Assembly: GCA_017477245.1 (NCBI GenBank)
Contig: JAFUWY010000027.1
Coordinates: 118,942 to 182,941 of the forward strand
Source of the DNA: Bacteroidales bacterium
Lineage (GTDB): Bacteria > Bacteroidota > Bacteroidia > Bacteroidales > UBA932
Direction: 5' to 3'
Length of the DNA stretch: 64,000 nucleotides
Under the pieces are notes generated by a model. The model worked only from the letters and a program-made list of their open reading frames with translations. It ran no database searches and had not been told where the DNA came from. The position numbers and the translations under genes are program-made. Positions within the stretch are counted from its first letter, which is position 1, and each line of letters opens with the position of its first letter. This document shows, piece by piece, positions 25,048 through 63,068 of the stretch.

Positions 25048-25138
25048 GTTGCCTTTAATTCAGACTCGTTGGGCAGTGATGCTCCGAATCATGTCAAGAA
25101 TTAATGCTTCATTTACGCAGTCGATTTAGATTCTTCAT

Positions 25139-59660: not shown

Positions 59661-59692
59661 AAAAGGCCGGCGCTCTCAGGCGCCGGCCTTTT
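59661..59692. terminator. Bidirectional intrinsic terminator
   Basis: AAAAGGCCGGCGC-tctcag-GCGCCGGCCTTTT between hsp20 and the convergent helicase gene. Confidence 0.85.
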
Positions 59693-59702
59693 CGTATCCC
59701 CT

Positions 59703-59794
59703 GCACCGTGCATATCGTCCCATTCCCTGGACCCATATGCGCATTTTTGGCCATTTTTGCTCATATCGTCCCCTCTTCTGGACCCTTATGCACG
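59703..59794. repeat. 92-bp double-hairpin REP/MITE-like element, copy 1
   Basis: GCACCGTGCATATCGTCCC...TGGACCCATATGCGCATTTTTGGCCATTTTTGCTCATATCGTCCC...TGGACCCTTATGCACG; same length and near-identical to 62880-62971. Confidence 0.9.
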
Positions 59795-61866
59795 CTCCGG
59801 GCCAGCAATTCCAGGATCTCCGGGCCACATTTCTCCCAGAGGCCCGGGCCGAAGCCGGGCACGGCCAGCATCTCCGCGCGCGTGGCCGGGCAGGCGTCCG
59901 CCAGGCCCAGCAGGGTTTTCTGATGCAGGACAATGTATGCCGGTACACCCAGTTCAGCTGCCTTGCGGCGGCGCCAGGCGACCAGGACCTCCACCAGTTC
60001 CGGATGCCGGTTGTCGTTGTAGACATCCCGCGCTTCCTGGGGTTTCCGGCGGGATTTCCGGGCGACGGGAGCTTCGCCCAGCAGGGCCTTGGCGCGGGTC
60101 TGCCGGAAGCGGACGGGATCGAATCCCCCTTCAGCCACTTCATGCAAGGTGTCCAGGTGGGCCTGCCACTGCGGCACCAGGTCCGCCGCAAGGTTCTTCA
60201 ATTGCTTTCCGACCTCGGCGTTGTCCACCTCCACACGGAAGAAGAGGTCGAGTCCCAGCGTTTCGAGCCGCGGGAGGAAATAGGCGCAGGCCTGCCCGAT
60301 ACGCTCTGTCGTCCGGTCTGCATCGTTGCGAAGGGACTGCAGCTGCGAGCGGAACCTGCCGGCGACTTCTTCCGTTTCGGACAGGTCACGCGCCGCCGAC
60401 TCCAGTCTCTCCAGCTGGGCGGGATACAGGCTTCCCAGCGAATCGCGCCAGATCTTCCGCAGGTAGTACACCTCCCGCAGCAATGTCCCGAAACTGAAGC
60501 ACGCGCACTGCAGGGCCAGGGTGAAGGCGGCCCGGTGTCCCGCCAGGGCGTCCGCCACCTGCCCGGGAGCCGGGAAAGCGTCATTGAACGCAGTGACATC
60601 TGCGTCAGAGAGCAGCAGGTCCCGCCGGACAGGCCGGACCAGGGAGATCCCCTCCAGCGTCCGGCAACGGGAAAGGGCCACGTACACCTGGCCGAAGGCA
60701 AAGGCCGAACCGATGTCGATCACCACGTGGTCGAAGGTCAGCCCCTGGCTTTTGTGAACCGTGACGGCCCAGGCCGGGCGCAGCGGGAACTGGCGGAAGG
60801 TCCCCTTCACTTCCTGGCGGATCTCCCCGCTCCGCTCATCCAGGGTATATTGGAGATTCTGCCATTCCTGCCTGTCGACGGCTGTTTCCTCTCCGGAATC
60901 GGCCAGCACGCGCACGATGTCCTCCTCCAAAACGGCGACCGTCCCCAGCTTGCCATTGTAGTAGCGCCCCTCCGGGTCGTTGCGGATGAACATGACCCGC
61001 GCACCAGGCTTGAGCTCCAGCGAAGCAGCAGCCGGGTACAACCCCTCGGGGTACTCCCCTTCTACCAGGGCTTCCAGCCGCGCTGCATCGCCGGGCAGTG
61101 CGGCCAGGCGGGCAGCATTCTCGCTGTCGGCCTGGTGATTATGCGTCGTGAGCCGGATCCAGTCTTCCCCGGCCGGGGCTCCGACCCGTGCATTGATCCG
61201 TTGCAGCATCCCCGCGGATATCCGCGCATCGCGCACGGCGTTCAGGATCTCCACGAAGTCCGAATCCTCTTGGCGGTAGACCTTCTGCAGCTCCAGTGTC
61301 ACATAAGGCAACTGCTGCAAAGCCTTGCTATGGAAGAAGTAAGGAGACGGATAGACTCTCTCCAGGAAAGGCCGTTCCTCCTCCCGGACAACGGGAGAGA
61401 GTTGCCGGGCATCGCCGATCATCAGCAGCTGCACGCCGCCGAACGGCTCGGTACTGCGGCGGACCCGGCGCAGGGTCATGTCCACGGCATCCATCAGGTC
61501 CGCCCGTACCATGGAGACCTCATCGATGACCAGCAGGTCCAGGGTCCTCAGGATCAGGACCTTGTCCTTGCGGAGCCGGCGGTAGCGCTCCGGCATCTGG
61601 TACTCGTTCCTCAACTCCTGGACGTCAGGCAGATACGGACACAGGGGCAGGGAGAAAAAGGAGTGGATCGTACTTCCCCGCGCATTGATGGCGGCGACGC
61701 CGGTCGGCGCCAGCACCACGCATCGCTTGGAGGTCTTCTCTACGATATACCTCAGGAAGGTTGTCTTACCCGTCCCGGCCTTGCCGGTCAGGAACAACGA
61801 CACGGATGTCTCCTCCACATATTTCTCCGCCAGGTCGAACAGCGGATCCCTCTGCAAATCATTCAT
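59761..61866 (-). CDS. Pif1/RecD-like SF1B helicase with a C-terminal HRDC domain
   Basis: GKAGTGKTT, APTGVAA, TIHSFF, IDEVSMV, IGDARQL and AWAVTVHKSQG, VYVALSR motifs; HRDC tail LVAWRR...PAYIV...VPGFG. Confidence 0.92.
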   Translation of the reverse strand: MNDLQRDPLFDLAEKYVEETSVSLFLTGKAGTGKTTFLRYIVEKTSKRCVVLAPTGVAAINARGSTIHSFFSLPLCPYLPDVQELRNEYQMPERYRRLRKDKVLILRTLDLLVIDEVSMVRADLMDAVDMTLRRVRRSTEPFGGVQLLMIGDARQLSPVVREEERPFLERVYPSPYFFHSKALQQLPYVTLELQKVYRQEDSDFVEILNAVRDARISAGMLQRINARVGAPAGEDWIRLTTHNHQADSENAARLAALPGDAARLEALVEGEYPEGLYPAAASLELKPGARVMFIRNDPEGRYYNGKLGTVAVLEEDIVRVLADSGEETAVDRQEWQNLQYTLDERSGEIRQEVKGTFRQFPLRPAWAVTVHKSQGLTFDHVVIDIGSAFAFGQVYVALSRCRTLEGISLVRPVRRDLLLSDADVTAFNDAFPAPGQVADALAGHRAAFTLALQCACFSFGTLLREVYYLRKIWRDSLGSLYPAQLERLESAARDLSETEEVAGRFRSQLQSLRNDADRTTERIGQACAYFLPRLETLGLDLFFRVEVDNAEVGKQLKNLAADLVPQWQAHLDTLHEVAEGGFDPVRFRQTRAKALLGEAPVARKSRRKPQEARDVYNDNRHPELVEVLVAWRRRKAAELGVPAYIVLHQKTLLGLADACPATRAEMLAVPGFGPGLWEKCGPEILELLARSVHKGPEEGTI

Positions 61867-61872
61867 GGTGGA

Positions 61873-61880
61873 CAAAGATA
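61873..61880 (-). promoter_or_regulatory. Bacteroidetes -7 promoter element TATCTTTG of the helicase gene
   Basis: Exact TAnnTTTG match 7 nt upstream of the ATG at 61866, in the short gap after the transposase stop. Confidence 0.6.
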
Positions 61881-61885
61881 CCGGT

Positions 61886-62767
61886 TTATTCTGAATCCTC
61901 CAGCAACCTGGCTGCCGCAGCATAGGTCAGCGCGGTGACCCGGGCCAGCTGGTTGACGTCGCTGCTGAAACGGAAGCGGAGCTGGCGGAGCAGCTCCACC
62001 TGTTCTTCCCGTTCCAACTCTCCGAAAGAAGCCTTTCCGAAAAGCGTCTTGCACAATTCCGGGACAGCCGGCAGGATCGTCTGGTCCCGGAACGACGGCA
62101 GGCCGGTCTCGCCGGAGACGACCCGCTTCCGGGCCTTGGAGGAAGTATGCAGGAAATAATTCATCCGGTTCGGGGTCCGGTACAACTGTTCGACATACCT
62201 GACATTCAGGTAACTGGTCGGAAGCACATACCCTTCCTCGCACAGGAGCCACTCCCCCGGCAGTTCGACGGCGCAGTGCAGCATCCGCCTTTTTGCGCGG
62301 GCGGATATCTCCCCCAGCGGCCTCCCGCCGGCTTTGGCCGGATGGAAGAACGCCTGTCCGCATCCCCAGGGATAATGGGTCGGATGGGAGCAGATATTCG
62401 CAGCGACACAGTTCATCTGGACATAGGCAATGGCTCTCTCCACAGCCTCCCCTTCGTCTTCCGGGATTTCGCGGATATCCACACCGTTCCTCCTGAGGAA
62501 CTCCCTGACCCCGTACTTCCGCTGCAGGTACTTGGCATAGCGCATCTTGTAGCCGTTGACAAATGCAACGACTTCCTCCCTAGTCCCGTACAGCACGAAA
62601 TGGACATGGTTGGACATCAAGATAAAGACGAGTACCACGACGTTTGACAAGGCCACCTGGACAGCCACATAATTCATCCCGACCTTGAAATCATCATCAT
62701 CCCTGAACCACAATCCTTCTTCCAGATGCTCGGTGGTCACGAGCCAGATCTTCCTTTCTTTTTTCAT
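61886..62767 (-). CDS. Y1 HUH tyrosine transposase-like protein (RAYT / IS200-TnpA superfamily) with a C-terminal extension
   Basis: WFRDDDDF, ILMSNHVHFVL (HUH), AYVQMNCVAA (catalytic Tyr helix) and HYPWGC; helical C-terminal tail. Confidence 0.8.
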   Translation of the reverse strand: MKKERKIWLVTTEHLEEGLWFRDDDDFKVGMNYVAVQVALSNVVVLVFILMSNHVHFVLYGTREEVVAFVNGYKMRYAKYLQRKYGVREFLRRNGVDIREIPEDEGEAVERAIAYVQMNCVAANICSHPTHYPWGCGQAFFHPAKAGGRPLGEISARAKRRMLHCAVELPGEWLLCEEGYVLPTSYLNVRYVEQLYRTPNRMNYFLHTSSKARKRVVSGETGLPSFRDQTILPAVPELCKTLFGKASFGELEREEQVELLRQLRFRFSSDVNQLARVTALTYAAAARLLEDSE

Positions 62768-62814
62768 AGTCAATCAGTCTATCCGCCGGTGATACAGATC
62801 CACCGGTCTTCCTG

Positions 62815-62822
62815 CAAAAATA
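62815..62822 (-). promoter_or_regulatory. Bacteroidetes -7 promoter element TATTTTTG of the transposase gene
   Basis: Exact TAnnTTTG match about 50 nt upstream of the ATG, followed by a CCGGTG/CACCGG hairpin. Confidence 0.55.
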
Positions 62823-62879
62823 AGGTTTTCGCAGAATTCCGCAAGGGTTCGGCATCGTTTCTTAGGGAAAAACTAGCGG

Positions 62880-62971
62880 GCACCGTGCATATCGTCCCCA
62901 ACTTTGGACCCATATGCGCATTTTGGGCCATTTTTGCTCATATCGTCCCAAACTTTGGACCCATATGCACG
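62880..62971. repeat. 92-bp double-hairpin REP/MITE-like element, copy 2
   Basis: Direct-orientation copy of 59703-59794 with terminal inverted repeat CGTGCATAT / ATATGCACG. Confidence 0.9.
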
Positions 62972-63068
62972 GTCGGCGGGATGAAGGGTGGCGGAAGGGC
63001 GGAAGGGCGAAAGGGTGGGAGTTGGTGGGACCGGCGGGGCTGGGTGGCCGGGCTGGGGCGACCGGGGC

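Follow-up and report, generated by a model that had tools for sequence, protein, structure and literature searches.

A RAYT-like HUH gene and a linked Pif1-HRDC helicase gene bordered by REP hairpin doublets in a genome of the Bacteroidales

Locus layout and hairpin doublets

The DNA analysed here, referred to as the window, is a stretch of 64,000 nucleotides of contig JAFUWY010000027.1 (positions 118,942 to 182,941 of the forward strand) from the Bacteroidales bacterium assembly GCA_017477245.1. It contains a gene for a Y1 HUH protein similar to the REP-associated tyrosine transposases (RAYTs) and, co-directional with it, a gene for a Pif1-family helicase with a C-terminal HRDC domain. The two are separate open reading frames, divided by a stop codon and a gap of 19 nt. 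Both lie between two direct repeats of the same orientation, which are treated here as repetitive extragenic palindromes (REPs). A model that had read only the letters of the sequence (the original prediction) had described these reading frames and the repeats around them. The description held, except that each repeat measures 95 nt and not 92 bp. The repeats are 86% identical, with a spacing of 3177 nt, and a repeat search of the window gave this one clear direct-repeat family around the gene pair. The features of the locus are collected in Table 1.

Table 1. Features of the locus, in positions of the window
Feature	Position	Strand	Remarks
REP doublet copy 1, at the helicase 3' end	59703-59797		monomers 59708-59742 and 59758-59793
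Pif1-family superfamily 1B (SF1B) helicase gene, C-terminal HRDC	59761-61866	-	701 aa; profile and structure matches
TATCTTTG, promoter-like motif in the 19-nt RAYT-helicase gap	61873-61880	-	6 nt before the helicase ATG
RAYT-like Y1 HUH gene	61886-62767	-	ATG start, 293 aa; 295 aa if a TTG further upstream (62773) is the start
TATTTTTG, -7-type promoter-like motif (TAnnTTTG) upstream of the RAYT gene	62815-62822	-	putative function
REP doublet copy 2, ~107 nt upstream of the RAYT start	62880-62974		monomers 62885-62919 and 62935-62970
Segment missing in the helicase-deleted strain	59860-61880		2,021 bp; nearly the whole helicase gene
hsp20 terminator hairpin	59661-59692	+	left border of the inserted block
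G-rich tract from REP copy 2 to the ZIP stop codon	62975-63068		right border

Reading of the sequence and alignment of the genomic copies revealed that the repeat unit is a tandem direct dimer (doublet) of an imperfect hairpin of ~35 nt. Each monomer consists of GTGCATATCGTCC, a variable loop and GGACCCATATGCRC. The stem is formed by GTGCATAT with ATATGCRC and by GTCC with GGAC, with a small internal bulge, and the two monomers are joined by a linker of 15 nt, ATTTTnGGCCATTTT. The doublets, taken as single-stranded DNA, fold better than shuffled controls (z -3.0 to -5.5). Judged by the asymmetric bulge, the monomers lie in direct orientation, whereas the two REPs of a REPIN are inverted relative to each other and make up a single long hairpin. 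Each monomer is palindromic, however, and the lowest-energy structure predicted for the window doublet is likewise a single long hairpin. At the helicase side, the last 12 codons of the gene and its stop codon are encoded within REP copy 1.

When the repeat was compared by BLAST with the 2.378-Mb assembly, ~10 full doublets were found on eight contigs, that is, ~8 further ones besides the two at the locus. Their stems are conserved and their loops variable. With ~10 copies in 2.38 Mb, 0.012 additional copies would be expected in the 3.3 kb next to any one of them, so that bracketing of the gene pair by chance is improbable. A repeat so common that flanking would be expected by chance, which had been named as an objection to a unit, was thus not observed. 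Logan contigs from the likely source sample (X1) matched the window exactly, and contigs across the junction of the HUH and helicase genes were recovered from gut runs of goat (X6) and sheep (X11) as well.

The linker between the hairpins (TTTTGGC..TTTT, then TGC) was found to be alike across REP families with quite different stems (window 59743-59757 and 62920-62934; L135:1395-1408; L136:2829-2842; L058:5873-5880). It could be where RAYTs of the whole family recognise or cut the DNA.

The encoded HUH protein and helicase

The HUH protein carries the motif H56-V-H58 and a catalytic Tyr117 within AYVQMN. These three residues are invariant in an alignment of 32 homologs, in which identity falls to 22%, and the protein has a single conserved tyrosine. 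Residues ~145-295 make up an additional C-terminal helical domain of ~150 aa. The AlphaFold model (predicted local distance difference test score, pLDDT, 89.3) gave PDB entry 4er8, the E. coli RAYT bound to REP, as its top match, followed by the TnpA proteins of ISDra2 and IS608. Curated models scored below their cut-offs: 26.6 bits against 80 for NCBIfam NF047646 (REP_Tyr_transpos) and 18 against 23 for Pfam PF01797 (Y1_Tnp), the latter being a precomputed match in some close homologs. More than 2,100 homologs of ~290 aa were found, a few of which are named RayT or transposase by their source. Taken together with the ~10 dispersed doublets, the predicted fold and the invariant residues make it well supported that the gene encodes a RAYT-like Y1 HUH enzyme with cognate REP hairpins, as had been proposed at the outset. 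The motif TATTTTTG upstream of the gene is called promoter-like because it fits TAnnTTTG, which we take to be the Bacteroidetes -7 consensus.

The second protein matched the Pfam models PIF1 (E 5e-30) and HRDC of the RecQ type (E 3.5e-17). Its residues 17-435 matched the BaPif1 structure 5ftb with E 3e-97, and a match to the Helraiser helicase domain was also obtained (E 4e-16). The translation holds GKAGTGKT (Walker A) and DEVSM (motif II). As judged from these matches, the downstream protein is a genuine Pif1-family helicase, in agreement with the original prediction. Its N-terminal 435 aa align with BaPif1 (PDB 5ftb/5fhd) over their full length; in contrast to BaPif1, the window helicase has ~270 extra C-terminal residues ending in HRDC and is linked to a RAYT within its subclade. 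It is the only helicase gene of this kind detected by tblastn and blastn in the window's genome.

Linkage of the two genes and occupancy of the site

Homologs of the helicase are widespread in the order and stand there without an HUH neighbour. The earlier remark that Pif1-HRDC genes are common chromosomal genes of Bacteroidales was therefore correct for the order, but within the genus the distribution is patchy: the gene was present in 127 of 401 sampled genomes, so it is not a core gene there. In the helicase tree, the window gene and six others at 65-68% identity form a subclade with a support of 100 and a stem length of 0.49. An HUH gene lies directly upstream of the helicase in every member, intact in six of the seven and as a remnant of ~100 nt in the seventh (G264). 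The intact HUH genes of L058, G279, G033 and G129 are 53-60% identical to that of the window. The one of G411 (L167 11014-12009, minus strand) encodes a very divergent protein of 331 aa with the motifs PDHVHD and, around the tyrosine, YVGNNP; it overlaps the helicase start by 4 nt, and no REPs were found around it. No HUH gene was present at any of the 38 loci of other clades in the tree or at 6 further Bacteroidales loci. The sequence comparisons thus indicate a helicase-HUH link that is not due to chance, has one origin and persists through speciation. In support of a common history, the HUH and helicase trees have a matching branching order for G033, L058, G279 and G129.

REP doublets were also found around the pair in other members, where they belong to other sequence families with a CCAATGG core. 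They bracket both genes in L058 (spacing 3134) and in G279 (spacing 3186). In G033 there are doublets on both outer sides and one more between the genes, in G264 half-hairpin remnants on both outer sides, and in G129 an upstream doublet only, with no downstream REP. The flanking doublets of G279 share 97% identity, and none of the ~10 dispersed copies exceeds 82% identity to them. The REP of the window and that of L058 begin at an equivalent point of the helicase gene, three codons past a conserved EILExL, and are unlike in sequence. This suggests that the helicase-REP junction is old and has been updated in place.

The helicase gene appears to have its own promoter. A TAnnTTTG-like motif lies 6-7 nt before the helicase ATG; of the six other subclade members, five have the form TATCTTnG at the equivalent position and L058 has a looser form, TGATTTTG. 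In G033, where a REP separates the two genes, the motif stays with the helicase.

The window's genome has nine RAYT-like genes, the one described here and eight further diverged paralogs of 24-68% identity. The closest paralog (C16) is 68% identical, those on C22 and C3 are 54% identical each, and five others, on C28, C15 (two), C7 and C38, are 24-26% identical. Neither a helicase nor a remnant of one was present at any of the eight. The C16 paralog is arranged as REP, 125 nt, RAYT, 18 nt and REP, with no helicase, and its repeat family of ~92 nt is distinct from that of the window and at least as abundant. Of 31 related genomes, 16 of the 19 from the window's genus encode the RAYT family, and the 12 other families of the order lack it. 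None of the 29 further RAYT loci in these genomes lies within 1.5 kb of a Pif1 helicase. Among 80 metagenome loci of the HUH family, 76 had no helicase or remnant, one had an intact linked helicase and one a remnant. There was no excess of REP copies for the helicase-linked RAYT. The gene pairing described by the original prediction is consequently borne out within the subclade, where all seven helicases are linked; the link is facultative when the paralogs, the related genomes, the metagenome loci and the strain deletion described below are considered. The same holds for its proviso that homologous transposases might show no linkage to helicases, which is contradicted by the helicase's own subclade and agrees with nearly all other homologs.

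Two side observations concern these paralogs. On either side of those on C28 and C7 there are extensive arrays of other repeats, dispersed or in tandem, that recur on many contigs. In addition, an exact match of 39 nt over the catalytic tyrosine motif joins the window (62389-62427, RAYT positions 346-384) and C22 (~25097-25135). In two public contigs the RAYT protein next to 99%-identical flanks was only 83% (L054) and 68% (L056) identical to that of the window. Hypervariability or paralog swapping of the RAYT at the strain level was considered and rejected, as the sliding identity showed reciprocal chimeras with C22 that break at the 39-nt match. This match is long enough to mislead assemblies built with k=31, and the two contigs were therefore treated as probable assembly artefacts; a short gene-conversion tract is possible.

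The flanking genes differ among all seven species of the subclade. These species-specific flanks were rejected as a proof of mobility, given that synteny of hsp20, GDH and ZIP is lacking in those genomes as well. The site could be compared in the three nearest species, G014, G121 and G346 (ZIP 89-93% and GDH 97-98% identical). There, ZIP and hsp20 abut at a distance of 13-106 nt with no REP, so that the whole unit is missing, and the empty sites sought by the original prediction exist. No helicase homolog was found anywhere in the five nearest genomes (G014, G121, G346, G040 and G125). Likewise, no relative was seen in which the helicase stands on its own beside hsp20 without the transposase, an arrangement that had been put forward as an argument against a module.

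Partial versions of the block were also recovered. In L052 the order is RAYT, REP and hsp20 with no helicase, and the REP abuts the RAYT stop codon. Comparison of L057 with G121, whose flanks are 98.2% identical, revealed a 1.29-kb REP-RAYT-REP cassette without helicase at the ZIP/hsp20 site of L057 only (L057 825-2111, reverse complement; empty site L180 of G121, 1481-1494). A few G-rich bases are common to the junctions and the stem of the REP, and the indel runs ~115 nt past the upstream REP. Finally, a helicase-deleted form was found in two independent assemblies (L055 and L051) and corresponds to a strain of the window's own or a sister species; in L055 the ZIP, hsp20 and GDH proteins are 99% identical to those of the window. 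The ends of the deletion meet at a CCGG microhomology, with the RAYT, the two REPs and the final 33 codons of the helicase still in place. From the alignments, the block as a whole appears to be present or absent, gained and lost together.

Nothing in the assembled sequences points to movement of the block as a unit, which had been suggested. The unit is single copy in the genome, and neither a near-identical copy of it nor one of the RAYT gene was detected there, the closest HUH paralog having a different repeat family. No circle or tandem junction was found in the assembled Logan contigs. One contig of X11 joins position 62971 to 59710 with 17 intervening bases; it was rejected as a circle junction and is most likely a REP multimer from elsewhere, because the 17 bases resemble the inter-monomer linker. 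There was no sign of recent transfer in the composition, the G+C content matching that of the flanks, and no tnpB is present in the unit.

The left flank of L051 was considered separately. There, the outermost 5 nt of the stem of the REP have given way to a 68-nt AT-rich element end (L051:1343-1410), and the same sequence occurs at three contig ends of the window's genome (C24:6766-6833, C12:72-139 and C5:100210-100277). The differing flank was therefore rejected as movement of the cassette, being the end of a multicopy element, and its sequence is that of an insertion into the REP or of an assembly join. The element is possibly an insertion sequence with REP hairpins as its target.

Interpretation and comparison with known systems

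The locus is read here, at about even confidence, as a REPtron with a tightly linked helicase that is expressed separately and is a passenger or an optional helper, not an obligatory subunit. By analogy with E. coli TnpA-REP and IS608 TnpA, the RAYT would bind the imperfect hairpins in single-stranded DNA. It would cut and rejoin them, and so maintain and spread the ~10 dispersed doublets. The helicase became enclosed by REPs a single time, in an ancestor common to its subclade, and the arrangement has since been inherited, gained and lost as a block. The helicase would be transcribed from its own promoter, for which the putative motif is the candidate, and seems dispensable for the retention of RAYT and REPs. 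It is this putative promoter, and the fact that RAYT and REPs were kept without the helicase, that suggest a passenger or optional helper. An obligatory partnership is opposed by the helicase deletion, by the conserved motif, by the unlinked state of most RAYT homologs and by the lack of a REP excess. A role as cofactor is plausible. The caution of the original prediction that the helicase might be a bystander agrees with its own conserved promoter-like motif, but not with the linkage in the whole subclade or with the low chance expectation.

Several observations weigh against this reading. The pairing of an HUH enzyme with an SF1B helicase is recurrent, as seen in Helitron RepHel and in the TraI/TrwC relaxases. 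Three HUH lineages occur upstream of one helicase subclade, that of the window being a different clade and that of G411 a third, which suggests that the position upstream of the helicase is favoured beyond inheritance. Moreover, the two genes are adjacent in seven species with otherwise entirely different gene order, the usual signature of functional coupling. REPs of species-specific sequence are present on the outer sides in the window, L058, G279 and G033, with remnants in G264, and the two genes look as if they formed one unit.

Under the alternative of a two-gene 'split RepHel' module, a 5'-3' Pif1-HRDC helicase would unwind the duplex and the REP hairpins would extrude single-stranded for the RAYT; the block may itself move by peel-and-paste from one outer hairpin to the other. 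This account, which ranks second, is possible but somewhat doubtful. It draws on the HUH link throughout a subclade with a long stem branch, on an adjacency kept while all flanking genes differ, and on the outer-side REPs of the window and three species, with remnants in a fourth, which have diverged along with the RAYT. The close likeness of the two G279 doublets, the absence of the block from an otherwise conserved site in the three nearest species and of the helicase from the five nearest genomes, and the Helraiser match point in the same direction. It is countered by the strain of the same or a sister species that lacks the helicase with RAYT and both REPs intact, by the separate promoter-like motif, and by the absence of a linked helicase from nearly all RAYT homologs, the eight in the genome included. 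The single copy per genome, the missing circle or tandem junction, the REP patterns of G129 and G033, and an indel within the G121 species that is not exactly REP-bounded also speak against it. In its strongest form the locus would be a bacterial two-gene counterpart of RepHel, in which the helicase peels off the hairpin strand, the Y1 RAYT excises and pastes it independently of replication forks, and the 3.3-kb cassette occasionally moves into terminator-proximal sites such as ZIP/hsp20; this we consider unlikely.

An insertion sequence of the IS200/IS605 type that is currently transposing, with the helicase as its passenger, would account for the same-orientation hairpins at both ends with a Y1 transposase-like gene between them, and for the presence or absence of a related cassette between strains of the G121 species. 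It is improbable in view of the lack of near-identical copies (closest paralog 68% identical at the protein level, with another repeat family), the absence of tnpB, the matching G+C content and the dispersal of the ends as stand-alone, REP-like doublets. Even less probable is a pure coincidence, in which an ordinary chromosomal helicase happens to lie beside a RAYT with unrelated REP copies on each side. Helicase homologs do occur across Bacteroidales without an HUH gene, and REPs often lodge at the 3' ends of genes. Against this stand the chance expectation of 0.012, the presence of this architecture in further species whose REPs differ in sequence, the confinement of the link to exactly one helicase clade and the absence of relatives with the helicase alone beside hsp20. 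The least probable of these explanations, and one that we would hardly entertain, is a nuclease-helicase pair for anti-phage defence. The distribution is patchy and the pair is gained and lost as a block, and a PADLOC scan gave weak, partial matches of the helicase to RecD-like and candidate models. These matches are limited to generic SF1B cores, the HUH protein matched none of the PADLOC models, and cognate hairpins dispersed in the host chromosome fit the biology of REPs.

REPtrons, in which a tnpA-REP (RAYT) gene is bordered by REPs or bacterial interspersed mosaic elements (BIMEs), are known from E. coli (PMC3333891, PMC2817692). The present locus resembles them in having a Y1 HUH gene between hairpin repeats of a type that is also scattered through the genome, in what appears to be a single copy of each type, in lineage-specific loss and in a fold nearest to 4er8. 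It differs in the 2.1-kb Pif1-HRDC helicase gene inside the REP borders, in the ~295 aa protein with its ~150-aa helical C-terminal extension, in the nine diverged paralogs of the genome with separate repeat families and in the RAYT and Y1_Tnp model scores below cut-off. The REP units are moreover tandem direct dimers and low in number, ~10, whereas E. coli has hundreds of REP copies.

Class 2 TnpA-Y1 proteins include subclasses with C-terminal helix-turn-helix (HTH) or DnaA_C-like extensions (PMC6006769), and share with the window protein the NHVH-type HUH motif, the long C-terminal helical domain and the presence in Bacteroidetes. However, no REPs are reported near the genes of subclass 2.1 (PMC6006769), whereas clear REPs flank the window gene, and the tyrosine motif is YIxxNP there and AYVQMN here. 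The elements of the IS200/IS605 family (IS608, ISDra2) share the Y1 HUH fold and, near the ends of one strand, the imperfect hairpins, and by analogy a single-strand mechanism would be expected; unlike them, the locus is no multicopy element, has no tnpB, and its hairpins have spread on their own. With Helitron RepHel (Helraiser) and MOBF TraI/TrwC it has in common an HUH nuclease together with a Pif1/RecD-family SF1B helicase. Here, however, there are two genes with separate promoter-like motifs, a Y1 and not a Y2 enzyme, and no rolling-circle termini or oriT. The Helitron-like identity offered by the original prediction is thus not supported, as there is a separate Y1 gene and no fused Y2 RepHel; the likeness is an analogy only. 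REPtrons, RAYTs and C-terminally extended Y1 proteins have already been described (PMC3333891, PMC2817692, PMC6006769), and the linked helicase is the variant. In the literature searched, whose coverage is incomplete, no paper was found that joins a RAYT or REPtron with Pif1 or RecD2.

RAYTs are the classic example of a domesticated single-strand transposase, and the locus bears on the source of their single-stranded substrate and on the mobility of REPtrons. It is of use mainly as a ready-made natural genotype series for testing, since close gut Bacteroidales offer the RAYT with Pif1, the helicase-deleted form, the RAYT cassette alone and the empty site. If the helicase aids REP processing, RAYTs would be tied mechanistically to Helitrons and to relaxase-helicases; if it is a passenger, REP-bounded blocks can carry and shed cargo genes.

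A minor observation was made at the right border of the block. In L051 and L055, the tract that corresponds to the G-rich one of the window is made up instead of variable-number tandem repeats (GGGACGGACCGGCAGGAG).

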